Source: Sphingomonadaceae bacterium | GTDB lineage: Bacteria > Pseudomonadota > Alphaproteobacteria > Sphingomonadales > Sphingomonadaceae | DNA: 64,000 nucleotides | Reading direction: 5' to 3' | Assembly (NCBI GenBank): GCA_041739175.1 | Contig: JBGSOJ010000007.1 | Coordinates: 937 to 64,936, forward strand | Shown here: piece by piece, positions 9,699-41,658 of the stretch | Position numbering within the stretch: the first letter of the stretch is position 1 | Layout: the number at the start of each line of letters is the position of its first letter | The notes under the pieces: model-generated | Database searches by the model: none | Told to the model about the DNA's origin: nothing | The model's input: the letters and a program-made list of their open reading frames with translations, nothing else | Translations under genes and position numbers: made by a program

Positions 9699-9743
9699 AC
9701 ATGGTCCTAAATGGATTACCATTCAGGGATAGCGCAAACGAAG

Positions 9744-9762
9744 TTAAAAACCCTTTAACCAT
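9744..9762 (+). promoter_or_regulatory. candidate CtrA box TTAA-N7-TTAACCAT
   Basis: TTAAaaaccctTTAACCAT read directly. Lies 46-60 nt upstream of the CHASE2-EAL start, in the 97-bp gap to the Lrp gene. Confidence 0.5.
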
Positions 9763-9819
9763 GACCAGCGGCTGGGTGCGTATACACGATTATACAACCA
9801 TTAGCCTAAATCTCGCAGG

Positions 9820-10284: not shown

Positions 10285-10386
10285 TGCACTTAAAACAGCC
10301 CATAGTTAGCGTTATTCACTAAAATTAGGCCATAACGCATCAAACTTTGCAACCAAATTCCAAAAGCGATGTGATATTGTTGATGA

Positions 10387-12434: not shown

Positions 12435-12435
12435 C

Positions 12436-26787: not shown

Positions 26788-26790
26788 CGC

Positions 26791-27867
26791 CTAACCCAAT
26801 CCACGCGCGAGCCAGGGGCCAATAATGTTGGCAACCGGCAATGGCAGGCGTTTCCAAAGGTCGATCATTGCCGCGAACTTTCCGCTCGTCGGATCAATAT
26901 CGCGCGCGCCGCCATCGGCGCTCCATTCGGCATAGGTGAGCGGCGTCGGTTCCATGCCGAAGTTTTTCTTGAAATTATAACTGCCCGCGCCGACCTTCGA
27001 CCGGCCAAAGTCAAAGCGGTGGTATCCGCGTGCGCGCGCGTGACACATGAGCTTATAATACATGACTTCATTGGCGCGAAAATGCCGCGCCGCGTCGCCG
27101 CCGCCACCCCAATACGGCATCACGACGCCTTTGTGATACAGGCTAAGCACCGCCGCCAGCGCCATACCATCGGGCGCACGAACGATCAGGATTTCGGCGT
27201 CCTCGGCAAATTCGGCGCGCATCGCATCAAACAGGCTTTTGGGGAAAACAGGTGTACCAAGGTTGCGCACCGATAGCGCATATAGGGCATAATGGTCTTT
27301 GGCCAGCGCATCGCAATTGCCGGCTTCGATGGTCAGGCCATTGTCCAGTCCCTTGCGCACTTCGGCGCGTTGCTTGCGCTTAATCGCGAGCAATTGCGCT
27401 TCATCATCGGTGGCCAAATCCCAGGCAAAGTTGCAATGCGCGCCCTCGATACGGTGCCAATCGGGTGGCAGATGTTCCGCCCCGCCGCGCAATTCGATTG
27501 AACCGACGCCATTGCGCGCCGCCCAATTTTTCGCCGCATCCGCAAGCCTTTCGGCAACCGAACCGCGATCCGCCAGAATGCCGCCGCCGACGCCAAAGCC
27601 GCTGCTGACCAAAGCGCGCCCGAACAGAATATGATGCATATCGGTCATCGGCAATACGCCTGCGATATGCCCCAAAGCGTCGCGCGCCACCAATACAACG
27701 GCGACTTGCCTTGTTCCTTTTGCGACGGCGCGCAGCCATTGCGGGCGGTGAAACACCTGCCCGTCAGGATGTGCCATGACATAGGCGTCGACCGCCGCTG
27801 CCTGTGCCTTGTTGAACATATCGGCGGTTTCAACGGCCAAGGAATGAAGCTCCGCGTCCATCTTCAT
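26791..27867 (-). CDS. FemAB-family protein, PEP-CTERM-locus type
   Basis: Size and position match. GNAT-like duplicated fold features (YHRFDFGRS...). ATGA overlap with the deacetylase stop at start 27867. Confidence 0.7.
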   Translation of the reverse strand: MKMDAELHSLAVETADMFNKAQAAAVDAYVMAHPDGQVFHRPQWLRAVAKGTRQVAVVLVARDALGHIAGVLPMTDMHHILFGRALVSSGFGVGGGILADRGSVAERLADAAKNWAARNGVGSIELRGGAEHLPPDWHRIEGAHCNFAWDLATDDEAQLLAIKRKQRAEVRKGLDNGLTIEAGNCDALAKDHYALYALSVRNLGTPVFPKSLFDAMRAEFAEDAEILIVRAPDGMALAAVLSLYHKGVVMPYWGGGGDAARHFRANEVMYYKLMCHARARGYHRFDFGRSKVGAGSYNFKKNFGMEPTPLTYAEWSADGGARDIDPTSGKFAAMIDLWKRLPLPVANIIGPWLARGLG

Positions 27868-28793
27868 GCCGCAAAGTCCAATGCGCGGGCAGCCAAATGC
27901 CGTTCCAATAAGGCATCCATGCGGCCCCACTCAAAATCCGTCATCACTTGGCGCAACTTGCCAGCCATGCCCGACAGGTTTGTGTAATGCCGTATTTTCG
28001 ACTTCAGCGGCGCGTTGGCGACGCGCGGCTGATCGGGGTCGATTTCCCAAGGGTGGAAGTAAAACAGCGCGCTTTGCCCCTGACTGTTCACTTGGGAAAT
28101 GGCCCATTTGCTGAGCGCGTAGGGCAGCAGCCGGAAAAACCCGCCGCCGCCTGCCGCCATCCGCCGCCCGCCAACCAGTGCGGTGGTCACAGGAAATTCA
28201 ACCAGATCGCTGCCCTTCACAGGGTTCCAAGCAAAACGTGGGCTTTCGGGCCAGCCATAATGGTCATGCGCAATTGGCGCGACGCTGCTGCTATAGCGAT
28301 AGCCTTGCTCGGCCAGCACTTCGTGTGCCCAAGGTGTACGTTTATCGATAGAAAAGCTGGGCGCGCGATAACCGATGACACGTGTACCACTGGCATCCTC
28401 TAGCAATTTTCGGGTTCGTTCCAAATCGGCGGCAAAGCGTGCACGGTCCATAGTGAACACGCGGTCGTGGCCGTAACCGTGGCTTGCAAGTTCATGCCCC
28501 GCATCGACAATTCGCCGCATCAACGCAGGATACCGTTCCGCCACCCAACCCAATGTAAAGAAGGTCGCGCTAACGCCTGCTTCGGCATAAAGCGCAAGCA
28601 CAGCATCGGTGTTGCTCTCCACTCGGCATTCCAGACTGTCCCAATCGGCAGGCGCAATCGTGTTTTCAAACGCACCGACCTGAAACCAGTCTTCGATGTC
28701 GACTGACATAGCATTGATCGGGGCGGTGTCGGGGCGCACGATTTTTTCCTTTGTCCGAACAGGCAAGCGATTTGAACCCCATCCCAGGTCCAA
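27864..28793 (-). CDS. polysaccharide deacetylase (NodB-like), PEP-CTERM-locus subfamily
   Basis: INAMSVDIEDWFQV start motif and HELASHGYGH metal site. Confidence 0.8.
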   Translation of the reverse strand: MDLGWGSNRLPVRTKEKIVRPDTAPINAMSVDIEDWFQVGAFENTIAPADWDSLECRVESNTDAVLALYAEAGVSATFFTLGWVAERYPALMRRIVDAGHELASHGYGHDRVFTMDRARFAADLERTRKLLEDASGTRVIGYRAPSFSIDKRTPWAHEVLAEQGYRYSSSVAPIAHDHYGWPESPRFAWNPVKGSDLVEFPVTTALVGGRRMAAGGGGFFRLLPYALSKWAISQVNSQGQSALFYFHPWEIDPDQPRVANAPLKSKIRHYTNLSGMAGKLRQVMTDFEWGRMDALLERHLAARALDFAA

Positions 28794-28799
28794 TTTTGA

Positions 28800-30041
28800 T
28801 TAGGCAGCGCGGGCAGTTAAGGCGTTGTTATCACTATCATCTTCTGCCCAATTAATCAGCATGGTCAAAATGCGCCGCAGCGATGCGTCCTGCGCTGCCA
28901 CGCGGGCTTCCAACGCGGTGATACGTGCCTTGGCTTCGGCGAGGTCCGCTAGATTTTGCGCCTCGTCCATCGGCGTTGCCGGTGATGCGATCGGTTGCGC
29001 GGGCATCGCGTGCGATTCCGGAACCGCAACCGGCATGGGTGCGGGAGCCACCGATTGCAGGGTTTGCGCCTGATCAATCGGGGCAGGTGCCGAAACGGGA
29101 ACTGTCACTGGCGCCAATGTTGGCATTGCTTGAGCCGGGGAAAATTGCCCCGCCCCGGATTGCCCAGACCCGGCTTGTACCGACCCGGCTTGCAAGGATT
29201 CTAATGCGGGCTCGGGCGTTGCCGCAGCAAAATCGCCGCGCTGATCTGCCAACACGCGGGCCAACAGCATCTCGTCGAGCATATCGGTCTGCTCCACTGC
29301 GCCCATCAGGAACAGCCGCGACAAGAGGACATTCAAGCGGCGCGGTACTCCGCCCGTCTCGGCGTAAAGTTGACGAATGGCACCGGGCGTAATGTCCGGG
29401 CGGCCGCTCCAGCCGACCTTCGACAAGCGATGCACGATATAGGGCTCAACCTCCTCGACATCCATGGCGTCAAGGTGATGGCTGGCGATAACCCGTTGGC
29501 GCAATTGCTCAAGGCGCGGTTCAGTATTGATCCGCGCACGAAATTCGGGCTGACCAAGCAAGAAGATTTGGAGTAGCGACGACGAACCCAATTGGAAGTT
29601 GGAGAGCATACGCAGCTCCTCCAATGCCTCAATCGTTAGGTTTTGCGCCTCATCCACCACAAGCAGACACCGCCGTCCGGCCCGTGCCTCGGCATGGAGC
29701 AGCATTTCGATTGCGCGCAAAGTCGCGGGCTTATCCATGCCGCGCGTATCGATGCCAAACGATTCGGCCGCCATGCCAATCATGTCGACGCCGTCGAGCG
29801 CGCTGGTGACGATATTCGCCGCCGTCAGCCGTGCCTTATCCACTGTCGCCATCAAATGCCCGACAAGCGTGGTCTTACCCGCACCGATTTCGCCCGTGAT
29901 GACAATAAAGCCCTCACCCTGCGCAAGGCCATAGCCGAGGTAAGACAACGCCTTGCGATGGGTCAGGCTTTCGAAATAGAAACGCGGGTCGGGCGTCAAT
30001 TGAAACGGATTGGCCGTTAACCCATAAAAATGTTCAAACAT
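28800..30041 (-). CDS. ExeA/GspA-like AAA ATPase, XrtA/PEP-CTERM system-associated
   Basis: MFEHFYGLTANPFQLTPDPRFYFES..., Walker A GEIGAGKTT, Walker B LLVVDEAQ. Low-complexity Ala/Pro/Gln C-terminus. Confidence 0.8.
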   Translation of the reverse strand: MFEHFYGLTANPFQLTPDPRFYFESLTHRKALSYLGYGLAQGEGFIVITGEIGAGKTTLVGHLMATVDKARLTAANIVTSALDGVDMIGMAAESFGIDTRGMDKPATLRAIEMLLHAEARAGRRCLLVVDEAQNLTIEALEELRMLSNFQLGSSSLLQIFLLGQPEFRARINTEPRLEQLRQRVIASHHLDAMDVEEVEPYIVHRLSKVGWSGRPDITPGAIRQLYAETGGVPRRLNVLLSRLFLMGAVEQTDMLDEMLLARVLADQRGDFAAATPEPALESLQAGSVQAGSGQSGAGQFSPAQAMPTLAPVTVPVSAPAPIDQAQTLQSVAPAPMPVAVPESHAMPAQPIASPATPMDEAQNLADLAEAKARITALEARVAAQDASLRRILTMLINWAEDDSDNNALTARAA

Positions 30042-30071
30042 GGCAAATAAGCCCCTGACTCAAGGTAATGA

Positions 30072-31763
30072 TCAAAATCCGTAGCGGAGGCCGATTAGGC
30101 CCGATGCAGTGATTTGCGTATCGAAATTCTCTCGTTTATAGGTATCAAGACCCGCCGCGACATTGAGCGATAGGTTGCGGATCAACTCTTGCCCATAGCT
30201 TGCATTCGCGCCCACGCCGATTGTGCCGTCTGTGGTCAACGCCGGCAGGTAATAATTGGCATAAACGCTTGTGCCAAAACTGCCCGACTGTCCGACATTG
30301 CGCGATGCGCTTAACGAGGCGAAGTAGGTTTCGTCGGTTTGCCCCGCCAATTGCGATTGCCCACCGATCGCAGATACTTGGTATGCGCGGTTTTCATAAC
30401 CAAAAGCGAAGCCCGTGTTCCATCCGCCGATGCGCGTGCCCATTGACGCGGTGACACCGCGCGCCCGGAATATGGCCGAATTTGCACTTTGGAGCGCCGG
30501 ATTGAAGCACAAAGCGTTCGAGCCGCCAATCGCACAGCCGGTCAATTCTCCGCTTAGGGGATTGCGCGTGTTGCTAAAATTGGTTCCCAAGTTCGCGATG
30601 GCGTTGTTAAGTTGGCTGCCAAAGCCGCTCAGCTGGTCATAGACCGATACGCCAATCGAGGTTCGGTTATTGGGCGCATAGGACGCGCTGCCATAAAATG
30701 TCGTGCTGTCGTAGCGACGACCGACGCGCGCCTCAACCGATGTCCGTCGGCTTGGACGCCACAAGACGCCCGCATCAAAAATCAAGCCATCGGTTTCAAA
30801 GCTCGTCAATCGTGGTGAATTTGTGTCAGTGATCAAGCGGCCGTTGGCGTCGTAGATCGGTATTCCTGCGCCATCGCGCACGGCGTCACGCTCCGATACC
30901 GTAACCTTCTCATATCCGACGCCGCCGACAAGCGCCAGCGATCCGGTAAGCGGCAAGGTTAGATCAACACGACCATATAGATCCTCATAACGTTGATCCA
31001 GTTGCGACGCATCTTCGCGGTTATAGCCAACGCCGACGGCCCAACCTACCGGCAAGGAGCCAGGTTGCATTCCCAACGACAGGCTGGCCGAATGGGTCAT
31101 GCTGTCATCGAATACATCGATAGGCGAAAGCCCCGGCGTTGCCGTGCCGCCATCTGCTGATTCGACCCGTGTGTAGCCATAGCGATAGCCCGCCGCGACA
31201 TTCATTTCGCCCACATTGGTTGCCAATGTTGGCCCGGTATAGGCCGAATAGACGCGGCTAACATTTTCGGTGATGCCGACGAAATTGTTCGGAACCGCGC
31301 CGCGCGCATCGACGCGGGTTCGCGACGCGATGCCGCCCACTTCCCAGTTCAAGCCAGGGGTGATGATCGCATTGGCATTGGCGAGAGCAGAGATGTACGT
31401 CTGATCATTCTCACCGTCTTGCCAAGAAAACTGCTGCTCCACCCGCGCCGACAACTGCCCGCGAAACCGCCGGTTGTAGATCGATGCGTCGAGGCCAGCG
31501 GCAACCGATGAATACGTAAATACCTCTGTCTCACCGCCGCTCAAATCAGCCAACACTGTCTGGTCGATTTCGACGAAGGGTGTGATTTCGAGGCGCGGGC
31601 GTTCATCCTGCCGCGAGGGACCTGATTGCCCCTGCGAAGGCGTTGGTTGCGATTGCGATTGTCGCGACGATTGCGATTGTGCCTGCGCCGGCGCGGCCAG
31701 CAACGTAACGCTGGTCATCAATGCGGTGCAAAATGCCAGTTGGCCCTTTTTCGTGAGGCTCAT
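30072..31763 (-). CDS. outer-membrane beta-barrel protein of the PEP-CTERM locus (uncharacterised family)
   Basis: Signal peptide ...LLAAPAQA, Gln/Ser-rich linker, alternating-strand sequence, C-terminal ...GLRYGF. Confidence 0.65.
   Translation of the reverse strand: MSLTKKGQLAFCTALMTSVTLLAAPAQAQSQSSRQSQSQPTPSQGQSGPSRQDERPRLEITPFVEIDQTVLADLSGGETEVFTYSSVAAGLDASIYNRRFRGQLSARVEQQFSWQDGENDQTYISALANANAIITPGLNWEVGGIASRTRVDARGAVPNNFVGITENVSRVYSAYTGPTLATNVGEMNVAAGYRYGYTRVESADGGTATPGLSPIDVFDDSMTHSASLSLGMQPGSLPVGWAVGVGYNREDASQLDQRYEDLYGRVDLTLPLTGSLALVGGVGYEKVTVSERDAVRDGAGIPIYDANGRLITDTNSPRLTSFETDGLIFDAGVLWRPSRRTSVEARVGRRYDSTTFYGSASYAPNNRTSIGVSVYDQLSGFGSQLNNAIANLGTNFSNTRNPLSGELTGCAIGGSNALCFNPALQSANSAIFRARGVTASMGTRIGGWNTGFAFGYENRAYQVSAIGGQSQLAGQTDETYFASLSASRNVGQSGSFGTSVYANYYLPALTTDGTIGVGANASYGQELIRNLSLNVAAGLDTYKRENFDTQITASGLIGLRYGF
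31645..31680 (-). repeat. imperfect in-frame CAATCG hexanucleotide repeats encoding (QS)n
   Basis: Minus strand CAATCG CAATCG TCGCGA CAATCG CAATCG CAACCA gives QSQSSRQSQSQP just after the signal peptide of the OM barrel gene. Confidence 0.5.
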
Positions 31764-32707
31764 GATCGTGCTCCTTGTCCGTAATAGCTGCCAAAGCGCC
31801 GTCCGGTTGGCGCAAATCGTGTGGCATTGAGTAACAATTGAATATGCTCACATCCTGACAACAGGCGCAGGGCATCGGTGAGTTCGGTGTCGTTGGTTTT
31901 GTCGGCGCGCACCACCATGACCACTTGCCCAACATTTAGCGCAAGCACCGATGCAGGCGACGCGGCCAAGGCAGGCGGCGAGTCAAAAATGATAATCCGC
32001 GCCGGATCGCTGCGCGTCAATTTATCGAGCAACCGCTCAGTTCGGGCCGAGGCCAAGAGTTCGGTATCATCGCGGTTGATGCTGCCCGCGGGCAGGACCG
32101 AAAGGCCATCAACATCGGTATCAAGGATCAAATCCTCAATCTCGATCGCACTATCGGCCAGGGCATCCATAAATCCCGCCGATTGCGGCAGGCCCAGCAC
32201 GTCGGGGATATCGGCCTTGGCAAAATCGGCGTCGATTAACAGAACGCGGTTATCCTTTTCACTGGCAATCGACAGCGCCAAATTGGTCGCGCAGAACGTC
32301 TTGCCCTCATTCGGATTGGCGGAGCAGACCAAAATCCGTTCACCATGTTGAACCGGTTCATAGCCTTTGCCCCCACGCGCGGCGAGCAGCAGTTGGCGTT
32401 TCACAATACGGAACTCTTCGGCCAATCCGTTCACGGGATCTTCGGGGACGATATGATTGCTGCGGCGCAGCATATCGCGGTCAATCGGCAGCACGGGGCC
32501 ACGCGGTTCTCGCACATCGCGTACGGAATCGCGTAGGCCTTGCTCATAAGCGGCATTGTGCGGCGTATGGCCATAAGGCGCGCCGCCAACAGCGCCCTGC
32601 CCCATTTGCAAGTTCGGCGTCTCGCGCAAGTCGCGGCCAAATCCGTACATTTCGGCGGCGCGTTCCAGCAAGGAACCGGGTTTTTGAATGGGCGTATGTT
32701 TTGTCAT
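31760..32707 (-). CDS. BY-kinase-like chain-length determinant ATPase (EpsG-type)
   Basis: Walker A-like CSANPNEGKTFCATNLALS, VLLIDADF Walker A', IIFDSPP Walker B. ATGA overlap downstream. Confidence 0.75.
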   Translation of the reverse strand: MTKHTPIQKPGSLLERAAEMYGFGRDLRETPNLQMGQGAVGGAPYGHTPHNAAYEQGLRDSVRDVREPRGPVLPIDRDMLRRSNHIVPEDPVNGLAEEFRIVKRQLLLAARGGKGYEPVQHGERILVCSANPNEGKTFCATNLALSIASEKDNRVLLIDADFAKADIPDVLGLPQSAGFMDALADSAIEIEDLILDTDVDGLSVLPAGSINRDDTELLASARTERLLDKLTRSDPARIIIFDSPPALAASPASVLALNVGQVVMVVRADKTNDTELTDALRLLSGCEHIQLLLNATRFAPTGRRFGSYYGQGARS

Positions 32708-32722
32708 GGTTGCAACTCCCGA

Positions 32723-34291
32723 TCAGATCAACGCGCCGCGCTGGGCGAATTCAATGACCATCAGCAACGCAAAGACCCCGACCAAGGACACTGCTGCGCC
32801 ATAATAATATTTCAGCCATCGTTTGCGCTCGACCGCCTCTTTTGGCGTCAGCATTTGCGAGATTGAGCCCAACACCGGCAGGCCCGTTGCGCGCTCCAGC
32901 TTCATCGGGCTGGCGTAAGTCGATTGCATCTGCCCCAGCGCCAATGCGACGCCGACACCAGCAGCTAAAGCTGCAAGCAGCACGCCAAAAATCAACAACG
33001 GCCGGTTGGGCGCGGATGGGGCCAACGGGCTGGACGGCGGATCGATCACACGGAACTGCACGGCGTCAGTCTCGCTAGAAATATCGCCGCGCAACCGCAC
33101 CCGTTCCCGCTCCGTGAGCAATTTGTCATATTGTTCCTTTTGAACGGCATAGTCGCGATTGAGCTTCTCATATTCTGCCGAAACGCCGGGTTCCGCCGCC
33201 AATTTGCCCGTCAGGCTTGCCATTTCGGCATCAAGTGAACTTTTGCGCGCCTGCAAGGCTGCGACTTGCGCCTGCCGTTCGGAGCGCATGGAAATTAGCG
33301 AACTGTAAGCGGGGTTTGGCGTTTGGAAACTCCGATCACCGCTGCCGCCGGTGCTGCCTGATGGCGTGCTTGCCGCTTGCTGCTGCAAATAGGCCACTTG
33401 CCGTTTTTGTGCGATGACGTCGGGGTGGCTGTCGGTTAGCCCGCGACCACGCAAACCCGCCAATTCACCGCGCGCCTGATTCAGCTGCGCCTGTGCCGCG
33501 CTGGGTGCGGACATGCCGGGGTTTCCGGGAACAACCGTGGTCAGGGTCGCCGGTGTCCCAGCGATTTGTCCGTTCAACGCGGCAAGCGAGCTTTGCGCCT
33601 GAATCAACTGCGATTCGACTTGCCCCAACTCGGCGCGCGCCGTTGTGCTGCGATTGCTGGCAGATTGCGCGCCCGGCAGGATGCCCAGGTTTTGCGTTTC
33701 AAACGCGATGCGCGCTTGCTCCGCCTCGGCCATGGCCTTTTGCTTTGCTTCGATTTGCGAATCAAGGAAACGCAACGTGTTGCTGGTTCCGGCGCGATCG
33801 GTGGCGATGTTGTCCTCTTGAAACAAATCGATCAATTTTTGCACGACATCACGCGAGAGCGCGGCGGCCTGTTTGTCGCTCATGGAACTGCTGGTAAGTT
33901 CTGCCGTCACAGCGAAAAGATTATCGCGCTCGGCCGAAACCTTGATGGATTTGCGCAGCATTTCGACCATAACCGCCATGTCACGGTCGGTTTTGACCAA
34001 ACCGGCAAGGCCCGTTTGCCGCACGACCTTCTCCAGATTGATGGTGCTGGTCAGCGTCTTTTCCAACCGGTCTATGTCGTTCCGTTTCGCACCCGCACCG
34101 CTGCTGAGTTCGGTTGACAACAATTCTTCCGACTGCACGAAAATGCGGGCTTTTGATTCATAACTGTTGGGGATCAGAGTCAGAACCAACCAACCGGCAA
34201 GGCAAATGGCCCACGCCACGCCCAGAACCAACCAGCGGCGGTTCCAGACGCTATACAATGCCAATCGGATTTCGTCGTATAGGCCGTTCAT
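32723..34291 (-). CDS. Wzz/PCP-family chain length determinant protein (EpsF-type)
   Basis: N- and C-terminal TM helices flanking a long coiled-coil periplasmic region, with a Pro-rich segment before the last TM. Confidence 0.75.
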   Translation of the reverse strand: MNGLYDEIRLALYSVWNRRWLVLGVAWAICLAGWLVLTLIPNSYESKARIFVQSEELLSTELSSGAGAKRNDIDRLEKTLTSTINLEKVVRQTGLAGLVKTDRDMAVMVEMLRKSIKVSAERDNLFAVTAELTSSSMSDKQAAALSRDVVQKLIDLFQEDNIATDRAGTSNTLRFLDSQIEAKQKAMAEAEQARIAFETQNLGILPGAQSASNRSTTARAELGQVESQLIQAQSSLAALNGQIAGTPATLTTVVPGNPGMSAPSAAQAQLNQARGELAGLRGRGLTDSHPDVIAQKRQVAYLQQQAASTPSGSTGGSGDRSFQTPNPAYSSLISMRSERQAQVAALQARKSSLDAEMASLTGKLAAEPGVSAEYEKLNRDYAVQKEQYDKLLTERERVRLRGDISSETDAVQFRVIDPPSSPLAPSAPNRPLLIFGVLLAALAAGVGVALALGQMQSTYASPMKLERATGLPVLGSISQMLTPKEAVERKRWLKYYYGAAVSLVGVFALLMVIEFAQRGALI

Positions 34292-34339
34292 GTTAGTCCC
34301 TGACAGCGAGGTAAAGTGTTGCCGACGCGCAAAAGTGCA

Positions 34340-34987
34340 TTAAAATGCGCTCCGCGGAATGGTGATGACATCGCCCGGTTGCAGCAGGACATTGGCGCGC
34401 ATATCACCTTTTTGTAGCAGATCGTCGATGCGCAGACGGTATTCACGGCGTTGTCCCGTCGCGCGGTCAATCCGTGACAAGCGCGCGCGATTGCCGGCGG
34501 CAAACTCCGACAATCCACCCACCGCAATCAAGGCATCAAGCAATGTCATATTGGCCCGATAGCTCAGCGCAGCCGGCTTTTCGGTTGCGCCAATAATCTG
34601 CACCTGTTGCTGATAATTGCCGACAATGCCGCTAACGATCACATTTACGATTGGGTCGTTGATATATTTCGACAATTGCAGGCGCACATCCTGCGCCAAC
34701 ATGGTTGTCGTCTTACCTGCGGCAGGCATGTCGGTAATCAGCGGCGTGGTAATGCGGCCATCGGGGCGCACGGTAACCGACGCGCCAAGTTCCGGATTGC
34801 GCCACACAAAGATCGTGAGCGAGTCGCCCGGCCCGATGATATAGTCCTCGGGAACAGCGCCCTGCGCGGGCTGCACACCATAGCTGGACGGGGCATCGGG
34901 CACATTTGCGCCGCCGCTGCACGATGCCAGAACCGCTGCCAAGATAGGCAATGGCGCGAATTTGGTCCAATTTTGTGGCTTCAACAT
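34340..34987 (-). CDS. Wza-like polysaccharide export lipoprotein (EpsE-type)
   Basis: Lipobox LASCSG, YIIGPGDSLTIFVW Poly_export motif, SLBB-like LQPGDVITIP. Confidence 0.8.
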   Translation of the reverse strand: MLKPQNWTKFAPLPILAAVLASCSGGANVPDAPSSYGVQPAQGAVPEDYIIGPGDSLTIFVWRNPELGASVTVRPDGRITTPLITDMPAAGKTTTMLAQDVRLQLSKYINDPIVNVIVSGIVGNYQQQVQIIGATEKPAALSYRANMTLLDALIAVGGLSEFAAGNRARLSRIDRATGQRREYRLRIDDLLQKGDMRANVLLQPGDVITIPRSAF

Positions 34988-35023
34988 AACGCTACCTCAT
35001 TGCAATTTATGCAGTACAAGCAG

Positions 35024-35116
35024 ACCGTTAGGGATTTTTAGGCCACCCGCACCGGCGCTTTTTACGCATCTTCACAATGCGCTATGCCGAAAAAGGGTGA
35101 ACATACCGTTAGGATT
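35024..35116. repeat. direct repeat CAnACCGTTAGG(G)ATT x2 in the eps operon upstream region
   Basis: cagACCGTTAGGGATT at 35021-35036 and cataCCGTTAGGATT at 35102-35116, about 81 bp apart, upstream of the export gene start (34987). Confidence 0.35.
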
Positions 35117-35176
35117 GTTGCCGGATTCTGCCTCCATTTCGGCCCGTCCCGAAACGGGGCAGCGTCCTAAGCCTTT

Positions 35177-36391
35177 CTAAACAAGCAATTCGGCGGCGGG
35201 GCCCTGCCCCAAAAACGCGGCAGGGCTGGCGCTTGCGCCATAGGCTCCGGCGCAGAATATCGCGACCAAATCGCCCCGCTGCGCCGAGGGCAGCGACACC
35301 TGATTGCCCAGCAAGTCCAGCGGAGTGCAAAGGCATCCGACAACCGTTTGCACCTCCTCGGCAGCGCCCATGCGGTTGGCAATGGCGATCGGATAATTCC
35401 GGCGGACAACCGTGCCGAAATTGCCGCTTGCGGCGAGTTGATGATGCAGGCCGCCATCGGTGATTAGAAAAACCTCGCCGTGGCTAATTTTGCGGTCGAT
35501 GACGCGGGTCAGATATACGCCCGCCTCTCCCACCAGATAGCGACCAAGCTCAATGCAGAAATGGGTATCGGCGAGTTCGCGCGGCAAGGTGTCGAACGCC
35601 TGCGAAAGCGCGGCACCAATCGCCTGAATATTCAGCGGTTCATCGCTGGGGAAATAGGGAATGCCAAAACCCCCGCCCAAATTGATCCGCGCCGGATTGG
35701 CACCAATTGCCCGGGCAAGTTCAGCCGATAACGCAAGCGATTGGGATTGCGATTCAATAATCGCATCGGCCTTAAGCGCTTGGCTTCCTGCATAAATATG
35801 GAACCCGCGCCATTCCGCTCCAGCGTCAATAATAGCACGCGCAAGCGCGGGAACGCGTTCCGCATCGACGCCGAATTGCTTCGCCCCGCCGCCCATTTTC
35901 ATGCCGGACCCTTTAAGGTCGAAGCTGGGGTTTACTCGAATCGCAATGCGCGCCTGCTTTCCTAAATCGGCTGCAATGGCCAGCCCGCGGGCGACTTCTC
36001 CTTCCGATTCAGCATTTAGCGTAACGCCATGGCCAATTGCCGACCACAATTCGGCATCGCGCTTGCCTGGCCCCGCAAAGCTGATCTGTTTAGGATCAAC
36101 ACCCGCCGCCATGGCCAACGCCAACTCGCCACCCGATGCAATATCGAAGCCATCGACCAGCCCATTCATATGCGCAATAAGGGGACCGAACGGATTCGCC
36201 TTCATCGCGTAATGGATCGAAAGTCGCCTAGGCATTGCGGCGCGTAGGTCGGCGAATTGCGCATCCAGCATGGCCTTACTGTAAACGAAGCACGGCGTTT
36301 GCGCGGCCAAATCTTCCGCGCGGCGACCGTCGATGAGCAAATGGCCATCAGAATGCTTAAAAGCGGTAGGGATTGGTCCCATTGGTTTCAT
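35177..36391 (-). CDS. PLP-dependent Orn/DAP/Arg-type decarboxylase, exosortase A-associated
   Basis: PLP lysine motif IHYAMKANPF, GGGFGIPY, GCLCTPLD. ATGA overlap with the ligase. Confidence 0.85.
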   Translation of the reverse strand: MKPMGPIPTAFKHSDGHLLIDGRRAEDLAAQTPCFVYSKAMLDAQFADLRAAMPRRLSIHYAMKANPFGPLIAHMNGLVDGFDIASGGELALAMAAGVDPKQISFAGPGKRDAELWSAIGHGVTLNAESEGEVARGLAIAADLGKQARIAIRVNPSFDLKGSGMKMGGGAKQFGVDAERVPALARAIIDAGAEWRGFHIYAGSQALKADAIIESQSQSLALSAELARAIGANPARINLGGGFGIPYFPSDEPLNIQAIGAALSQAFDTLPRELADTHFCIELGRYLVGEAGVYLTRVIDRKISHGEVFLITDGGLHHQLAASGNFGTVVRRNYPIAIANRMGAAEEVQTVVGCLCTPLDLLGNQVSLPSAQRGDLVAIFCAGAYGASASPAAFLGQGPAAELLV

Positions 36392-37926
36392 GGTTGCAAT
36401 TCCCCGTTTGCAATTTGCTCAACCAGCGCCGCGCGATCGATCTTGCCATTGGGGTTTTTGGGAAAACTGTCCAGCCAGATGATGTGCGCAGGCTGCATAA
36501 AGCTCGGCAATTGCCCCTTGAAATGCGCCACCACCGCCGCGCTATCGGGCATATGCCCCGACGCCGCGCGCAGCAACAGCCAGATTTCTGCGTCAGTGCG
36601 GGGGTTCTTTTGCCCGATGGCCAATGCCTCCGCGACCCCGCCGCTAGCAAGTGCCGCATCCTCAATTTCCGTGGGTGAAATGCGATTGCCCGACACCTTA
36701 ATCATCGCGTCATCGCGGCCGACAAAATAGAGCAAGCCCTCAGCATCGCGGCGCACTGTATCGCCTGACCACACCGCGATGCCGCCCATATTGCTATGAA
36801 CGGGCGCAGGCTTGAATCGTTCAGCAGTCCGCACCGGGTCGCGCCAATAGCCCTGCGCAACCAACGGCCCGCAATGGACGAGTTCCCCCGGTTCATCTGC
36901 CGCGCACTCCTGCCCGTCCGCGCCAACCACCAAAATCTCGGCATATGGGATAGCGCGGCCCATGCTGGTCGGATGGCTATCGACCAGCGTTGGCGGCAAA
37001 TAGGTGGAGCGGAACGCCTCAGTTAGGCCGTACATCGGATAGAGATCAGCCTTTGGAAACTGCGCACGTAGCCGCCGCACAAGTGGCTCGGTTAGTGCGC
37101 CACCGCTATTGGTTAAACGGCGTAGCGGGGCGGATGATTCCTCCGGCCATTCAAGCTCCGCCAATTGGACCCACAAAGGCGGAACCGCGGCCAAGGTGGT
37201 TATCCCCTCCCGTGCGCACGCCTTTACGACATCGCGCGGGGTTAGGTAATCGAGCGGGATAACCGTGCCACCCGCCACCCAGGTTGAGAACATTTGGTTC
37301 TGCCCATAATCAAACGACAAAGGCAGAACGGCCAGCGTGCGGTCATCCGCCGCCATGCCCAAATAGTGCGCAACGCTAATTGCACCGAGCGACAGATTGG
37401 CGTGGCTCAACATGACGCCTTTTGGCCGCCCGGTTGAACCGGAGGTGTAAAGCAATGCCGCCAAAGCGTTGAGGTCAGTGTTGCTATCCGATGGCGGCGT
37501 TTCCTCCGCATCCGCTTCCATGGCAACCAAAGCCTCGGCTTCTTCAAGCAATGTACAGACAGCAGGAACATCATGCCCGTCTAGCGCGCTTATGCGCGCG
37601 GCGTTGGCCAGACACAGCCGCGCGCCGCTGTCAGAGAGGATATATGCTGCCTGCGCGCCCTTCAATTGGGGATTGATCGGCACATGGATCAGCCCCGCCC
37701 GCGCCGCCGCCATGGGCATACACACCGTCAAAAGCCCCTTTCCCGCCCAACTCGCCACGCGGTCCCCCGCCAATGCCCCTTGCGACCGCAGAAAATGCGC
37801 CAGTGTGCCAACACAAGAATTTAACTGTTTGTAAGATAAAACGCGATCACGCAGACGCAGAGCCGGTGCTTCGCTGCTGCCGCGCAACACAATATGGTCA
37901 ATCGGAAATGCAGGCAAAGCCGTCAT
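36388..37926 (-). CDS. AMP-forming acyl-CoA/acyl-carrier ligase, exosortase A-associated
   Basis: Adenylation motifs LLYTSGSTGRPKGVMLSH, YGLTE, GDTVRRDAEGLLYFVGRDD, PKNPNGKIDR. Confidence 0.85.
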   Translation of the reverse strand: MTALPAFPIDHIVLRGSSEAPALRLRDRVLSYKQLNSCVGTLAHFLRSQGALAGDRVASWAGKGLLTVCMPMAAARAGLIHVPINPQLKGAQAAYILSDSGARLCLANAARISALDGHDVPAVCTLLEEAEALVAMEADAEETPPSDSNTDLNALAALLYTSGSTGRPKGVMLSHANLSLGAISVAHYLGMAADDRTLAVLPLSFDYGQNQMFSTWVAGGTVIPLDYLTPRDVVKACAREGITTLAAVPPLWVQLAELEWPEESSAPLRRLTNSGGALTEPLVRRLRAQFPKADLYPMYGLTEAFRSTYLPPTLVDSHPTSMGRAIPYAEILVVGADGQECAADEPGELVHCGPLVAQGYWRDPVRTAERFKPAPVHSNMGGIAVWSGDTVRRDAEGLLYFVGRDDAMIKVSGNRISPTEIEDAALASGGVAEALAIGQKNPRTDAEIWLLLRAASGHMPDSAAVVAHFKGQLPSFMQPAHIIWLDSFPKNPNGKIDRAALVEQIANGELQP

Positions 37927-37955
37927 CGGAAAACTGGAAACCTCGTGGGGGGCTG

Positions 37956-39014
37956 ATGGCCATGGTTCAAGCGGAGACTATGCCGCCGATTAGTGAATAT
38001 CACGATAACTTCGATAGCGCGAGAGCCGCTATGGGCGACGCTTTGTCGCGTGATCGGCAGGCATCTTTGTTTAACCGACTGGATTGGCTTGAGCCCTTAT
38101 ATGCCCACGCCCTTTCGGAACATCAGCCCCTTTTGCTGCGATCGCGATGGCAGGGCGCCGAATGCTGGTTGCCGCTGATGCGGACCCAGCATGGTCAGTT
38201 TATGGGGCTTTCGCATTTTTACAATTTCCAATTTGGCCCCATTTTTGCGGGCGCGCATGGCGAAGCGTCAAAAATAGACCTATTGCTGTCGGTGGCAGCG
38301 GAAGCAGCCAAGCACGCGCGGCGCATTGACCTGCATCAGGTTCCGGATGAAGACAAAAGCGCGACTTTGCTGCAATCGGCATTTGTGCGCAGCGGTTGGG
38401 TGTGTCAGCGTTACCAATGCGACGTCAACCACATCCTGAATGTACAGGGTCGCAGCTTCGAAGCCTATTGGGCCACCCGCCCCAGCCAATTGCGCAACAC
38501 AGTGCGGCGAAAAGCGAAAAAGGGGGCCGTTCGGCTTCACATCGAACGCCGATTTAATGCCAAGATTTGGGGCGATTATGAGACGGTTTACGCGCAAAGC
38601 TGGAAACCCGTCGAAGGCAACCCCGCATTTCTGCGGCAATTGGCGCAGCAGGAAGGCGCAGCAGGTTGCCTGCGCATGGGGATTGCCTATTTGAATGAGA
38701 TACCCGTCGCCGCGCAATTTTGGACGAGCGAAAATGGCGTCGCGTTGATCCACAAATTGGCGCATACGAAGGACAGTCTGCCCTATTCACCCGGCACTTT
38801 GCTGACCCATGCGTTGATGCGCGAGGTTATCGACACCGACCATGTGCGGATCGTCGATTTCGGCACTGGTGATGATGCATACAAGCCCGATTGGATGGAT
38901 GCTGTGCGCCCACGGTACCATTTGACCATGCTGCGCCCGCTTGCGCCCGCGAATTGGCCGTGGATGATAAAACAACGGCTTAAGGGGCTTGCAGGGCAAG
39001 CGACGGCGGATTAA
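37956..39014 (+). CDS. CelD/BioF2-like (FemAB-related) GNAT acyltransferase
   Basis: About 350 aa. C-terminal acetyltransf-like region AQFWTSENGVALIHKLAHTKD...YSPGTLL. Divergent from the ligase gene with only 29 bp between start codons. Start is uncertain. Confidence 0.6.
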   Translation: MAMVQAETMPPISEYHDNFDSARAAMGDALSRDRQASLFNRLDWLEPLYAHALSEHQPLLLRSRWQGAECWLPLMRTQHGQFMGLSHFYNFQFGPIFAGAHGEASKIDLLLSVAAEAAKHARRIDLHQVPDEDKSATLLQSAFVRSGWVCQRYQCDVNHILNVQGRSFEAYWATRPSQLRNTVRRKAKKGAVRLHIERRFNAKIWGDYETVYAQSWKPVEGNPAFLRQLAQQEGAAGCLRMGIAYLNEIPVAAQFWTSENGVALIHKLAHTKDSLPYSPGTLLTHALMREVIDTDHVRIVDFGTGDDAYKPDWMDAVRPRYHLTMLRPLAPANWPWMIKQRLKGLAGQATAD

Positions 39015-39041
39015 CGGCGCTCCTAAAGGAGTTTCCGGCCG

Positions 39042-39347
39042 ATGTCGGATACGCAAACATCTTGGGGGACCATGTTGGCCGAAAGAAACATAAGCGCCAT
39101 TGATGCGCAACTTCGTTCGCTGTTGTGCGATGTGTTGGGCCTAAATGAAGAGCAGGTGTCGGGCTTCACAGACGATACCGAATTGTTCGGCGCATTGCCG
39201 GAACTGGACTCAATGGCGGTTGCTGGCCTGCTTACCGAGATGGAGGACCGCCTGCATATCGCGATTGACGATGACGAAGTCGATGGCGAATTGTTTGCTT
39301 CGTACGGCAGTCTGCTCGTATTTGCGACGAACAAAGTCGGCGCGTGA
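39042..39347 (+). CDS. acyl/peptidyl carrier protein
   Basis: 101 aa, acidic, phosphopantetheine attachment motif ALPELDSMAVAGLL. Confidence 0.8.
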   Translation: MSDTQTSWGTMLAERNISAIDAQLRSLLCDVLGLNEEQVSGFTDDTELFGALPELDSMAVAGLLTEMEDRLHIAIDDDEVDGELFASYGSLLVFATNKVGA

Positions 39348-40039
39348 CGGGGGGCCTATATTTCGATACCTACGACAGCGGTTTGGGCCGCGAACAGATG
39401 CTTTGCGCAGGCCGCGGCGTGCAACGGCTGCTCATTGTCCCTCCGTTATTTGATGAATTGAACCGTTTGCGGCGCACATTGGTTATGGCGATGCGCGTGG
39501 CCCACGAATCGTACAACATCTCAACCTGCCTGCCCGATTTGCCGGGCCAAAACGAAAGCCAAACGCCCCTGTCGCAACGCCGCCTGTCCGATTGGCATTG
39601 CGCAATGCAGAACGCGGCGACGCAGGTTGCCGCTATGGGAGTTGTAAGCATTCGGTCCGCGTGTCTGTTAGACACGCTTGCCAGCGATCCTTATGCCGCT
39701 CTACCGCGATGGCGTTATGTTCCCATGGCGGGAGAGCGCCTTGTTACCCAATTGCTGCGTACACAACTGGCCAGCGATAAGGCCGCTGGCGTCCGTTCAA
39801 CACGCGCCACCTATGAACCCGATGGCGATAACAGTGTGCTGAATATTGGCGGATACACGCTTTCTGCCGGATTGTTGCGCGATTTGGCGAAGGCCGAAGT
39901 AACTGAGGCGCATGAACGCACCGACATAGTGATTGAAAAGTCGATTGGCCCCGCGCTCTGGCTACGCAATGAACCCGGCGAGAGCGCGGAATTGGCGAAG
40001 ACGTTTGCAACACATTGGTCGGAATGGTTGGCAGGATGA
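39344..40039 (+). CDS. exosortase A-associated hydrolase 2-like protein (alpha/beta fold, possibly degenerate)
   Basis: GTGA overlap with the carrier protein. LLIVPPLFDELNRLRR N-terminal strand. I find no clean GxSxG (VVSIRSACLL at the expected elbow). Confidence 0.5.
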   Translation: MTGGLYFDTYDSGLGREQMLCAGRGVQRLLIVPPLFDELNRLRRTLVMAMRVAHESYNISTCLPDLPGQNESQTPLSQRRLSDWHCAMQNAATQVAAMGVVSIRSACLLDTLASDPYAALPRWRYVPMAGERLVTQLLRTQLASDKAAGVRSTRATYEPDGDNSVLNIGGYTLSAGLLRDLAKAEVTEAHERTDIVIEKSIGPALWLRNEPGESAELAKTFATHWSEWLAG

Positions 40040-40887
40040 CCCGCCGCACGTTTTACTTTGAATGCGCGGGCGTCCCATGCGCGGCGACGCTCGACTTGCC
40101 GCCTGATGGAGTGGAGGCTGGGCCAACCGGCCTCCTCATCGTCACCGGCGGCAATGAAGTGCGCAGCGGCCCACAAGGTAGCCAAGCGGCCATGGCGGCG
40201 CATTTTGCCGCCGTGGGCTTTGCCGTGTTCCGTTATGACCGCCGCGGCGTGGGGGATAGCGCAGGCGTCAATACAGGCTGGCGCGGAGCCGAAACCGATC
40301 TGCTCGCGGCGGCATCCGCTTTCCGTACGGCTTGTCCCTCCATTCGTCATGTCGTCGCCTATGGCAACTGCGATGGCGCAAGCACGTTGGCGCTGCACGG
40401 ACAAAAGGCCAAATTGGATAAGGCCATTTTGGCTAACCCGTGGGTGTTTGATCACGATGGCGAATCAACAATAGCCGATGATGACGACCAAAGCATGGCC
40501 CCTGCCGCACCCAGTCACAGCCGCTCATCGGCCCTTCGATATTATCGTAAGCGTTTGGCCGATCCGTCGCGTGTGGTACGCGATATTTTTGGCGGTCGCG
40601 TAAATGTGACCAAATTCGCGGCGGACGCAGTTGCCGCCACACAGCGTGCTGAGGTCACAAAAACCGCTGTCACCTTGAACGCCGCACTCGAGGGTTGGGG
40701 TGATCGTGCAACAGTGCTGTTGGCGCGCGACGACCGCACTGCGATTTTCTTTGACGAACAGATGGCGTTTTTGGGGCGAAGGTCGCCAACGGCACACAGC
40801 TGCCCAACCGCTTCCCACAGCTTCGCCGATGCTGCCGCGCGTTCTTGGCTTTATGCGCGGATTGGGGCTGTGCTTACCGCCCCTTAA
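40036..40887 (+). CDS. exosortase A-associated hydrolase 1-like alpha/beta hydrolase with Cys at the nucleophile elbow
   Basis: ATGA overlap upstream. LLIVTGGNEVRSGP strand and elbow VVAYGNCDGAST (G-x-C-x-G). Confidence 0.6.
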   Translation: MTRRTFYFECAGVPCAATLDLPPDGVEAGPTGLLIVTGGNEVRSGPQGSQAAMAAHFAAVGFAVFRYDRRGVGDSAGVNTGWRGAETDLLAAASAFRTACPSIRHVVAYGNCDGASTLALHGQKAKLDKAILANPWVFDHDGESTIADDDDQSMAPAAPSHSRSSALRYYRKRLADPSRVVRDIFGGRVNVTKFAADAVAATQRAEVTKTAVTLNAALEGWGDRATVLLARDDRTAIFFDEQMAFLGRRSPTAHSCPTASHSFADAAARSWLYARIGAVLTAP

Positions 40888-41658
40888 ATTCCGGAGGGCG
40901 CTTTTGTAGAAAGCTCATTACCCCTTCGACAAAATCGTCACTTCGGCTAGCCGTGCGCTGAAATTCGCGTTCTATGTCCAGATATTCGGAGAAGTCATGG
41001 TCCAACGCAGCCCACGCCTGCTTGCGAATATATTTCAGCGACATCGGTCCATTGGCAAGTTTCTCCGCCAGCGCGAGCGCGGTATCATCAACCGCGTCAT
41101 CCTCGACCAGGCGGGTAATCAATCCATCGGCAAAGGCACGCTCCGCCGGATAGCGTTCGCCCAAGAGCATCAGTTCCATGGTGCGCACGCGGCCAATGGC
41201 GCGCGCCATCAGATACGCAGCACCGCCATCAGAAGCGAGGCCGATATTGCAGAAGCTTTGCAAGAAATAGGCGCTTTTGCCCGCTACGATAAGGTCCCCC
41301 ATCATTGCGATGCCCGCCGCGACACCGACCGCAGGGCCACGAACCGCCGTGATGAAGGGGATATCCAGATCACGGATAATCCGCAGCATAGGATTAAAGC
41401 TGTCCTCCAACCCCTGCCCCGCGTCGCGCAGCGGGTCGTCGGGACGCAAACCACCATCGGCAAGGTTCGCCCCGCTGGAAAAGGCGCGGCCATGGCTGCC
41501 CAATACAATCGCCCGCGCTTCGTTGCGCGCGCGCTTTAGGGCCTCAACGGTTTCGCGCGCCATCGTGCGGTTTTGCGCGTTTAGGACATCGGGTTGATTG
41601 TATCGGATGAAGGCGACTTTGCCGCGCATTTCGTACGTTAAGGTTTCAAAGTCGCTCA
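40874..41658 (-). CDS. enoyl-CoA hydratase/isomerase (crotonase) family protein
   Basis: VAFIRYNQPDVLNAQN, RAFSSGANL, oxyanion region PFITAVRGPAVGVAAG. GTG 41658 is preceded by GGGAGA; 41692 is an alternative start. Confidence 0.85.

Follow-up and report, generated by a model that had tools for sequence, protein, structure and literature searches.

A six-gene module was analysed in a stretch of 64,000 nucleotides from a Sphingomonadaceae bacterium (assembly GCA_041739175.1, contig JBGSOJ010000007.1; hereafter the window), where it adjoins the operon of exosortase A (XrtA). The module encodes an adenylating ligase, a pyridoxal phosphate (PLP)-dependent decarboxylase, a GNAT-type acyltransferase, a small carrier protein and two proteins that have been named hydrolases (Table 1). 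We assign a probability of roughly 55% to the reading that the module core is a thiotemplated ω-amino acyl pathway, the later steps included. Its first two steps, the loading of an amino acid through the side-chain carboxyl and its decarboxylation on the carrier, appear likely from the comparison of the proteins with characterised enzymes: the VinN-type pocket of the ligase, the likeness of the decarboxylase to BtrK and the fusions found among their relatives together suggest that ligase, carrier and decarboxylase act serially on one tethered substrate. Databases already record these gene families and link them with exosortase A, and the chemistry of the trio is known from antibiotic and siderophore pathways. 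New, as far as the literature is searchable, are the assignment to the VinN and BtrK types, the proposed pair of a cysteine hydrolase and an arginine pseudo-hydrolase, and the dispensability of the GNAT protein.

Ligase, decarboxylase and carrier protein

The proteins were scanned with the hidden Markov models (HMMs) of NCBIfam and Pfam, and membership in NCBIfam families was judged by the curated cut-offs in bits. The ligase passed TIGR03098 (ligase_PEP_1) with 621 bits at a cut-off of 592.35. A full-length search of the PDB returned adenylation (A) domains of nonribosomal peptide synthetases (NRPS) as best matches, with 174-183 bits per domain, and fatty-acyl-CoA synthetases at about 150 bits. 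The HMM scans gave the same order, with 271 bits for the amino-acid adenylation domain model and 249-264 bits for models of long-chain-fatty-acid CoA ligases, the latter far under their cut-offs. The DltA model TIGR01734 was failed with 158.1 bits (cut-off 559.85).

The segment of the ligase that contains the specificity pocket, between the core motifs A4 and A5, was searched separately against the PDB. Its best match was VinN (3wv4; 48 bits, E 1.5e-11), with the runner-up at 28.7 bits; over the full length, ligase and VinN aligned with 181 bits and modest identity. VinN takes 3-methylaspartate as a β-amino acid and adenylates its side-chain carboxyl. Its amino-group ligand is an Asp, Ser299 and Arg331 serve the free α-carboxylate, residue 231 is bulky, and the β13-β14 loop is shorter by one residue (PMC11253843, PMC7756342). 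In an ungapped alignment of the two pockets, D206, Y207, S274 and R306 of the ligase corresponded to D230, F231, S299 and R331 of VinN, and the loop of the ligase was one residue shorter than that of the α-amino-acid domain BmdB, the same shortened length as in VinN. Of 70 alpha-, beta- and gammaproteobacterial homologues, at least 95% retained D206 and R306, and the motif YGxTExxR was preserved in three of four ligases that are fused to a decarboxylase. Judged by these residues, the ligase is predicted to be a stand-alone A domain of the VinN type that adenylates Asp (or Glu) at the side-chain carboxyl and charges the carrier with it. The product name acyl-CoA ligase, under which the family stands in the database, is probably wrong.

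The decarboxylase matched TIGR03099 (dCO2ase_PEP1) along the entire model (positions 1-398 of 398) with 573.9 bits, above the cut-off of 478.45, and its context is that of the family: it adjoins the TIGR03098 ligase through an ATGA overlap, and the XrtA operon lies directly downstream. The protein has an alanine-racemase fold with K64 as PLP lysine and matches the Pfam domains of ornithine, diaminopimelate (DAP) and arginine decarboxylases, but failed the lysA model (244 bits, cut-off 298). In a sequence search of all solved structures the closest relative was BtrK (7ru7/2j66; 239 bits, E 5e-70), whereas the best DAP decarboxylases reached 155 bits and lysine and ornithine decarboxylases at most 87. 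The structure of BtrK was deposited as 'L-glutamyl-[BtrI acyl-carrier protein] decarboxylase'. Both proteins have the motif LCTPxD, which reads LCTPLD at residues 354-359 in the window. The decarboxylase group has been placed within a DAP-decarboxylase-related clade (PMC7857480).

Relatives of the decarboxylase were collected in an exhaustive search of 1.8 billion representative proteins. In some, decarboxylase and AMP-binding ligase were joined in one protein, in either order (P0166, P0226, P0251 and P0254); in others the partner was a PP-binding carrier domain (P0265 and P0208). That the three proteins share one substrate finds independent support in these fusions. Like decarboxylases of the BtrK/VinO/FlvO type, the protein is encoded together with a free-standing carrier and a ligase, both in the window and in most of the 80 related loci described below. 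By analogy to BtrK, it is predicted to strip the α-carboxyl from a carrier-tethered amino acid. In two further relatives, P0210 and P0247 (730-743 aa), a BtrK-like decarboxylase is joined to a sulfotransferase domain, which hints at other uses of the clade.

The carrier protein passed PF00550 with 30.3 bits (cut-off 20.8). Its phosphopantetheine site, Ser57 (codon 39210-39212), lies within LPELDSMAV, and the motif of this region was kept in 65 carrier homologues. The carrier domain of the fusion protein P0208 aligned with the 101-aa carrier through the serine motif. The best PDB match was 2lki, an uncharacterised protein of 105 aa (51.6 bits).

Conservation across related loci

Iterated HMM searches were run over all open reading frames (ORFs) of 80 related genome loci, up to 10 kb on each side. 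Gene calling of our own and ORF clustering were dropped owing to antisense shadow ORFs in the GC-rich loci; selected neighbours at loci with the carrier, ligase and decarboxylase only were annotated with Pfam. Constancy was counted in the 58 loci with at least 5 kb on both sides, of which 49 were alphaproteobacterial and nine beta- or gammaproteobacterial.

The ligase was present in 48/49 alphaproteobacterial and in all nine beta- and gammaproteobacterial loci, the carrier in 47 and five, respectively, and both hydrolases with the carrier in 38 and four. Hydrolase 1 by itself was found in seven of the nine beta- and gammaproteobacterial loci. Ligase and decarboxylase followed each other in this order in all but two (L001 and L025) of those among the 80 loci that had enough sequence. 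All six genes occurred together less often (21/49 and 2/9). The six-gene unit that the sequence-only reading had described is thus present in the window but not universal: the true core consists of carrier, ligase and decarboxylase; the hydrolase pair often accompanies it, and the GNAT gene is optional. The XrtA operon stood directly downstream, with its gene order after the decarboxylase conserved, at 37 of the 49 alphaproteobacterial loci. The physical link to xrtA is therefore strong in Sphingomonadales and not universal.

At three loci (L070, L071 and L080), from Rhodocyclaceae, Kiloniellaceae and Thauera, an asparagine-synthase-like amidotransferase was encoded directly beside ligase and decarboxylase, with 133-155 bits against the TIGR03108 protein of the window. 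It may be a further functional partner of the module.

Hydrolase pair

Hydrolase 1 had TIGR03100 (hydr1_PEP) as its sole match, over model positions 2-269 of 274, and with 160 bits narrowly failed the cut-off of 168.45. Positional orthologues from sphingomonads and betaproteobacteria scored 211-311 bits on this model. The protein shares the context and the motifs of the family, namely the adjoining hydr2_PEP gene, the elbow, the Asp and the His. Its triad is Cys112-Asp233-His261, with the Cys codon at 40369-40371 and the elbow G-N-C-D-G. A PDB search with the single sequence gave marginal matches only. When the family profile was aligned with solved S33-type esterases (E 4e-20), their Ser-Asp-His triad coincided with Cys112, Asp233 and His261, and the triad also lined up with 50 homologues. 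The Cys was invariant in 51 homologues of the alpha, beta and gamma classes, and the family has the elbow G-[NL]-C-D-[AG], or G-x-C-D-[AG], together with the conserved Asp and His. From its active site, hydrolase 1 is predicted to accept the acyl group from the carrier thioester. A Cys nucleophile would suit a thioester-to-thioester transfer off the carrier that is followed by aminolysis or alcoholysis. In the copy of an Aquabacterium metagenome-assembled genome (MAG; L063) the triad His is replaced by Gln (ADQAFS for ADHTFS), with G-G-C-D-A as the elbow; this may be an inactive copy or a sequencing error.

Hydrolase 2 failed TIGR03101 (hydr2_PEP) by far, with 40.4 bits at a cut-off of 202.75. 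The same was seen in other sphingomonads, whose copies scored 29-66 bits, compared with 256-263 bits for those of Pelomonas and Thauera. The sphingomonad proteins are short, about 225-231 aa (39344-40039 in the window, 5370-6227 in L025, 7304-8209 in L036), and belong to a rapidly evolving lineage whose members are at present annotated as 'hypothetical protein'. Sequence searches with hydrolase 2 gave no Pfam and no PDB match. Its AlphaFold2 model had a mean predicted local distance difference test score (pLDDT) of 88.6 and matched α/β esterases and lipases in Foldseek. In this model a strand at 99-103 is followed by R104 and by a helix from residue 107. Arg104 (codon 39653-39655) was invariant in 46 sequences, a conserved His was not found in the family alignment, and the betaproteobacterial members that pass TIGR03101 have the same Arg in [GS]-x-R-x-G. 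Position, α/β fold and the elbow [GS]-x-R-x-[GA] agree with hydr2_PEP, and we treat the protein as a divergent positional orthologue of this family, not as a certified member. As modelled, Arg104 occupies the position of the nucleophile, and a protein built in this way lacks a nucleophile and cannot be a canonical hydrolase. Everywhere its gene is translationally coupled to that of hydrolase 1, and the protein therefore probably assists this enzyme as a partner without catalytic activity of its own. The label 'two hydrolases', also that of the database names, is misleading for a pair of one Cys enzyme and one protein without nucleophile.

GNAT protein

The GNAT protein passed PF13480 with 67 bits (cut-off 22) and had no NCBIfam match at E ≤ 0.001, TIGR03019 included. 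A sequence search of the PDB gave nothing useful. The AlphaFold2 model (pLDDT 90) has two GNAT lobes in FemX topology, and Foldseek returned as best folds FemX, Sba18/Sbb17 and the C-terminal domain of MprF, with E-values of 1e-13 to 1e-11 and template modelling scores of about 0.6. The top 30 fold matches in the PDB included FemX, FemA, MprF/aaPGS (aminoacyl-phosphatidylglycerol synthase) domains, the aminoacyl-tRNA-dependent amide synthases Sba18/Sbb17 and the clavulanate tandem GNAT; with the last of these included, the E-values ran from 1e-13 to 1e-10. A paralogous origin from the TIGR03019 FemAB protein of the XrtA operon (26791-27930) was considered and, at the sequence level, rejected, as BLASTP found no similarity between the two.

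The gene was present in 21/49 alphaproteobacterial and 4/9 beta- and gammaproteobacterial loci, in the latter at varying positions. It is wholly missing from Sphingomonas species, in which the carrier and ligase genes are directly divergent. By its modelled fold the protein is a FemX-like tandem-GNAT aminoacyl transferase and an optional, lineage-specific part of the module. Its donor could be an aminoacyl-tRNA or an aminoacyl-S-carrier.

Locus organization and the XrtA operon

Table 1. Position of the module genes and of the XrtA core operon in the window
Feature	Position	Strand	Basis and remarks
XrtA core operon	22104-34987	-	same direction as ligase and decarboxylase; begins 189 nt beyond the decarboxylase
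Decarboxylase	35177-36391	-	ORF list, TIGR03099
Ligase	36388-37926	-	ORF list, TIGR03098
Divergent intergenic region (29 nt)	37927-37955		between the start codons of ligase and GNAT
GNAT	37956-39014	+	ORF list, PF13480
Carrier protein (101 aa)	39042-39347	+	ORF list, PF00550
Hydrolase 2	39344-40039	+	ORF list; between carrier and hydrolase 1
Hydrolase 1	40036-40887	+	ORF list; rightmost of the six genes

The ORF list and a reading of the junctions bore out the gene identities, the coordinates, the 29-bp gap and the ATGA and GTGA couplings given in the sequence-only reading, and the TIGRFAMs family names that it had given were found to be right in the HMM scan. Its expectation that the proteins would hit the exosortase-associated models held for ligase and decarboxylase, with hydrolase 1 just under and hydrolase 2 far under the cut-off. 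The proposed association with the XrtA locus was likewise borne out by a contiguous XrtA operon. The HMM E-values of 1e-172 and 1e-186 and the synteny across dozens of genomes are far above chance, and the six ORFs, the divergent gap and the overlaps are confirmed as real.

Ligase and decarboxylase overlap by ATGA (36388-36391), carrier and hydrolase 2 by GTGA (39344-39347), and hydrolase 2 and hydrolase 1 again by ATGA (40036-40039), all as read from the sequence. The gap of 27 nt between the GNAT and carrier genes holds the Shine-Dalgarno sequence AAAGGAG ahead of the carrier ATG. The 29 nt between the start codon of the ligase (CAT, 37924-37926) and the GNAT ATG at 37956 depend on the choice of start: GNAT homologues align from about residue 9, and a start at M9 (position 37980) would widen the gap to 53 nt. 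A scan for sigma-70 consensus sites in the 29-nt gap and in the gap between the decarboxylase and the export gene gave nothing useful, with fewer promoter-like sites than in shuffled sequence. Given the 29-nt gap, the promoters of both divergent operons must lie within the flanking coding sequences. A terminator scan found a terminator-like hairpin at 40881-40898, on the stop codon of hydrolase 1.

The genes of the XrtA operon code, in this order, for an export protein, a chain-length determinant, a tyrosine kinase, an outer-membrane protein, an ATPase, a deacetylase, a FemAB protein, an stp1 glycosyltransferase, XrtA and an amidotransferase, with the NCBIfam matches TIGR03027, 03007, 03018, 03016, 03015, 03006, 03019, 03087, 03109 and 03108. 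Operon and module form an island (22104-40887) that is flanked by recR-fmt-truA on one side and by genes for an enoyl-CoA hydratase, an outer-membrane protein and RarA on the other. A preprint on epsSMASH described the XrtA polysaccharide cluster of Sphingomonadales and did not treat the module genes.

In the slot of the outer-membrane protein, the minus-strand ORF 30072-31763 encodes 563 aa that reached 28 bits on TIGR03016 (cut-off 91) and had no Pfam match; the protein is positionally kept across Sphingomonadales. The ORFs of FemAB (26791-27930) and deacetylase (27864-28793, minus strand) overlap by 67 nt as listed. Since the TIGR03019 match begins at residue 46, the true start of FemAB is probably further downstream. 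All six frames of the whole window were searched for PEP-CTERM tails with a simple pattern of PEP, hydrophobic stretch and basic residues; the sole match was a shadow ORF within the gene of the decarboxylase, and the substrates of XrtA are either encoded outside the 64 kb or too divergent for the pattern. The sole clearly low-GC stretch of the window (0.45 compared with about 0.57) is 7368-9722 on the minus strand. It encodes a 784-aa sensor with CHASE2 and EAL domains, of the cyclic di-GMP phosphodiesterase type, and adjoins an AsnC/Lrp regulator. The gene could be a foreign insertion or a biofilm-related regulator.

Proposed pathway

In the pathway that we propose, the VinN-type ligase would adenylate the side-chain carboxyl of L-aspartate or, less likely, of L-glutamate, as suggested by the pocket residues. 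The BtrK-like decarboxylase would then remove the α-carboxyl on the carrier and leave β-alanyl-S-carrier, or GABA-S-carrier (γ-aminobutyryl-S-carrier) if Glu is loaded; homology and the fusions point to this step. The VinN-like pocket favours the β-alanyl product, and the similarity to BtrK makes GABA-S-carrier the alternative. Thereafter, to go by the active site, the Cys of hydrolase 1 would take over the aminoacyl group as a thioester and hand it to an acceptor nucleophile, with hydrolase 2 as a non-catalytic partner or docking subunit. Where a FemX-like GNAT is present, its fold suggests that it might add or move an aminoacyl group, either by capping the new amine or by transfer to an amine or hydroxyl of the acceptor.

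We propose only tentatively that the aminoacyl group is passed on to an acceptor in the cell envelope or the exopolysaccharide (EPS). As the genes lead directly into the XrtA operon, the most likely candidate is the lipid-linked repeat unit of the EPS associated with XrtA, and it would gain a short arm with a primary amine. A further step, which we consider doubtful, is that the β-alanyl or GABA amine, whether carried by this repeat unit or by some other envelope carrier, serves after export as the nucleophile that resolves the XrtA acyl-enzyme and thereby joins PEP-CTERM proteins to the polysaccharide. On this doubtful reading, the hydrolase pair would represent a new type of carrier-protein-to-glycan aminoacyl transferase. 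The sequence-only reading had likewise proposed such an amine as exosortase acceptor, and the results speak neither for nor against it. Exosortase systems are widespread in biofilm- and floc-forming bacteria, and the annotations of ligase, decarboxylase and the two hydrolases have so far been drawn from context only. Recognition of a Btr/Vin-type core leads to testable predictions, namely the loading of Asp or Glu, a loss of 44 Da, and β-alanine or GABA in the EPS or in sorted proteins.

Several observations weigh against this pathway or parts of it. None of the nine beta- and gammaproteobacterial loci had an XrtA operon within 10 kb, and at nine of the 49 alphaproteobacterial loci (L008, L019, L027, L029, L034, L040, L056, L061 and L068) the module consisted of carrier, ligase and decarboxylase only, amid housekeeping genes. 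The proteins of these loci still passed the cut-offs of TIGR03098 and TIGR03099, and neither hydrolases nor a GNAT protein nor the XrtA operon was found within 10 kb. In L019 the trio (8198-12877) abuts truA-fmt, which in the window border the XrtA island, and it looks as if the 13-kb XrtA operon were missing there at one and the same chromosomal site. A Sphingorhabdus MAG (L001, 10001-11224) has a lone TIGR03099 decarboxylase (569 bits), and ligase, carrier or hydrolase were not found within 10 kb on either side of it. The ligase pocket appears to be of the Asp type, like that of VinN, whereas BtrK, the only solved carrier-dependent decarboxylase, is of the Glu type. As regards the pair of hydrolases, an hhalign comparison of the two profiles was weak (probability 26%) and stopped just before the elbow, and the placement of Arg104 rests on the motif pattern and the AlphaFold2 model. 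No N-terminal signal peptide was evident in the six proteins when their sequences were read without a prediction tool; if all six are cytoplasmic, the acceptor would be a cytoplasmic or inner-leaflet precursor. All known precedents belong to small-molecule antibiotic or siderophore pathways and not to polysaccharide decoration, and we know of no amino-acyl substituent in any XrtA-associated polysaccharide. A literature search found no functional study, substrate or phenotype for the families TIGR03098-TIGR03101, in line with what the sequence-only reading had stated; they are not mentioned in the main text of Haft 2006, and papers on Dechloromonas, Acidovorax and Rubrivivax only list the cluster genes.

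Alternative explanations

The precedents in secondary metabolism suggest another use of the same core, which we regard as unlikely but credible: β-alanyl- or GABA-S-carrier made by the trio might be turned into a metabolite of the membrane or a diffusible one, for example an N-acyl amide, an oligo-amide or a siderophore-like compound, that is co-regulated with the XrtA locus and attached neither to polysaccharide nor to proteins. Every characterised relative acts in such pathways, a small molecule would agree with the trio-only loci and with the beta- and gammaproteobacterial loci, and the decarboxylase-sulfotransferase fusions point to varied downstream chemistry. However, none of the module proteins was identified by the HMM scans as a condensation enzyme, a ketosynthase or another enzyme of chain building. 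The co-directional run of ligase and decarboxylase into the export and XrtA genes at 37/49 alphaproteobacterial loci also speaks against this explanation, as does the definition of four NCBIfam families by their co-occurrence with exosortase A.

The sequence-only reading had proposed a DltA/DltC-like loading through the α-carboxyl, with the decarboxylase separately making a polyamine-like amine from a free diamino or basic amino acid. Its general idea, carrier-dependent aminoacylation that involves a primary amine, survives in the pathway proposed here, but the likeness to DltA/DltC is loose (158 bits compared with a cut-off of about 560). Although the ligase retains the amino-group-binding Asp and the decarboxylase has the Pfam domains of ornithine, DAP and arginine decarboxylases, the VinN-like pocket with its invariant Arg at the free-carboxylate site and its shortened loop argues against α-carboxyl loading. 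A free substrate of the decarboxylase is made improbable by its much greater closeness to BtrK than to any free-substrate enzyme (239 bits as against 155 or less), by the relatives fused to carrier and ligase domains, and by the translational coupling to the ligase, with at most one gene between the two. Taken as a whole, this explanation is very unlikely. A tethered variant, in which the ligase loads meso-DAP and a LysA-like decarboxylation of the distal centre yields lysyl-S-carrier, could appeal to the DAP-decarboxylase-related clade of the enzyme (PMC7857480) and to its score on the lysA model. That score is under the cut-off, BtrK is clearly nearer, and the pocket resembles that of an enzyme which handles its substrate like a β-amino acid, a geometry unsuited to DAP; we consider the variant highly improbable. 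We think just as little of the activation of a fatty acid to its CoA or carrier thioester, with hydrolases and GNAT lipidating the polysaccharide or sorted proteins. It would fit the product name in NCBIfam and the scores on fatty-acid ligase models and on solved fatty-acyl-CoA synthases, yet all the model scores are far under their cut-offs and adenylation domains score higher in both searches. Moreover, the conserved Asp206 and Arg306 and the VinN signature fit an amino-dicarboxylate, and the coupled PLP decarboxylase would have no role on a fatty acyl chain. The thiotemplated ω-amino acyl pathway is retained as the preferred reading.

Comparison with known systems

The chemistry proposed for the core has been described in several biosynthetic pathways. 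In those of butirosin (BtrJ/I/K), closthioamide (CtaD/E/F) and fluvirucin (FlvN/L/O), Glu or Asp is tethered to a carrier via the side-chain carboxyl and α-decarboxylated there to GABA or β-alanine (PMC11350588). An equivalent logic has been proposed for vicenistatin and for bolagladin of Burkholderia (BolO/BolC/BolN), and the deletion of bolN is not rescued by free β-alanine (PMC7756342). With BtrI, BtrJ and BtrK of Bacillus circulans, which work with BtrH and BtrG, the module would have in common an amino-dicarboxylate held via its side-chain carboxyl on a small free-standing carrier and its on-carrier α-decarboxylation by a PLP enzyme of alanine-racemase fold, for which BtrK is the nearest solved relative (PMC7857480, PMC11350588). 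In butirosin the product then passes from the carrier to the amine of a sugar-derived acceptor. BtrJ is an ATP-grasp ligase, whereas the ligase of the module is an AMP-forming A domain. The module is also without BtrH-, BtrG- and BtrO/V-like proteins; off-loading would fall to a Cys α/β hydrolase and an Arg pseudo-hydrolase, sometimes with a FemX-like GNAT. Its context is a locus for polysaccharide and protein sorting, that of butirosin an antibiotic cluster.

In the make-up of the trio the module is closer to VinN/VinL/VinO, FlvN/L/O, BolO/BolC/BolN and CtaD/E/F, which likewise combine an AMP-forming ligase, a carrier and a PLP decarboxylase and yield a β-alanyl-type thioester. The VinN determinants Asp, aromatic residue, Ser and Arg and the shortened loop are all found in the ligase of the module. 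Unlike the module, these trios supply PKS/NRPS (polyketide synthase/NRPS) or amide-forming assembly lines. Some pathways for β-amino-acid starters have in addition a second ligase (VinM), an acyltransferase (VinK) and a peptidase (VinJ), none of which is encoded in the module.

Among database families, the module is an instance of the exosortase A set TIGR03098-TIGR03101 (Haft; NCBIfam), with the ligase beside the decarboxylase, hydrolase 2 beside hydrolase 1 and XrtA nearby. These families are defined by genome context only, there is no model for the carrier or the GNAT protein, and both hydrolases of the window are under the cut-offs. The DltA/DltC system resembles the module in that a free-standing adenylating enzyme charges a small carrier with an amino acid that is to decorate a cell-envelope polymer. 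It differs in the activation of the α-carboxyl and in having no decarboxylase, and DltB/DltD-type partners were not among the six module proteins in the HMM scans. For the optional GNAT protein, FemX, the C-terminal domain of MprF and Sba18/Sbb17 have the same tandem-GNAT fold as the model and transfer an aminoacyl group to a cell-envelope precursor or an amino sugar, where an amine or a hydroxyl receives it. Their identity to the GNAT protein is only 12-16%, and they use aminoacyl-tRNA.

A decarboxylase beside xrtA has an analogue in archaea. The anchoring of substrates by archaeosortase A of Haloferax volcanii, a sorting enzyme of the same superfamily, needs the amine lipid archaetidylethanolamine that is made by PssA and the decarboxylase PssD (PMC7157517). 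That decarboxylase is unrelated, acts on a lipid head group and works without carrier or ligase. Should the amine made by the module indeed be the acceptor of XrtA, this would explain the coupling of proteins to the matrix in activated-sludge flocs and environmental biofilms, in parallel to the lipid anchoring by archaeosortase.

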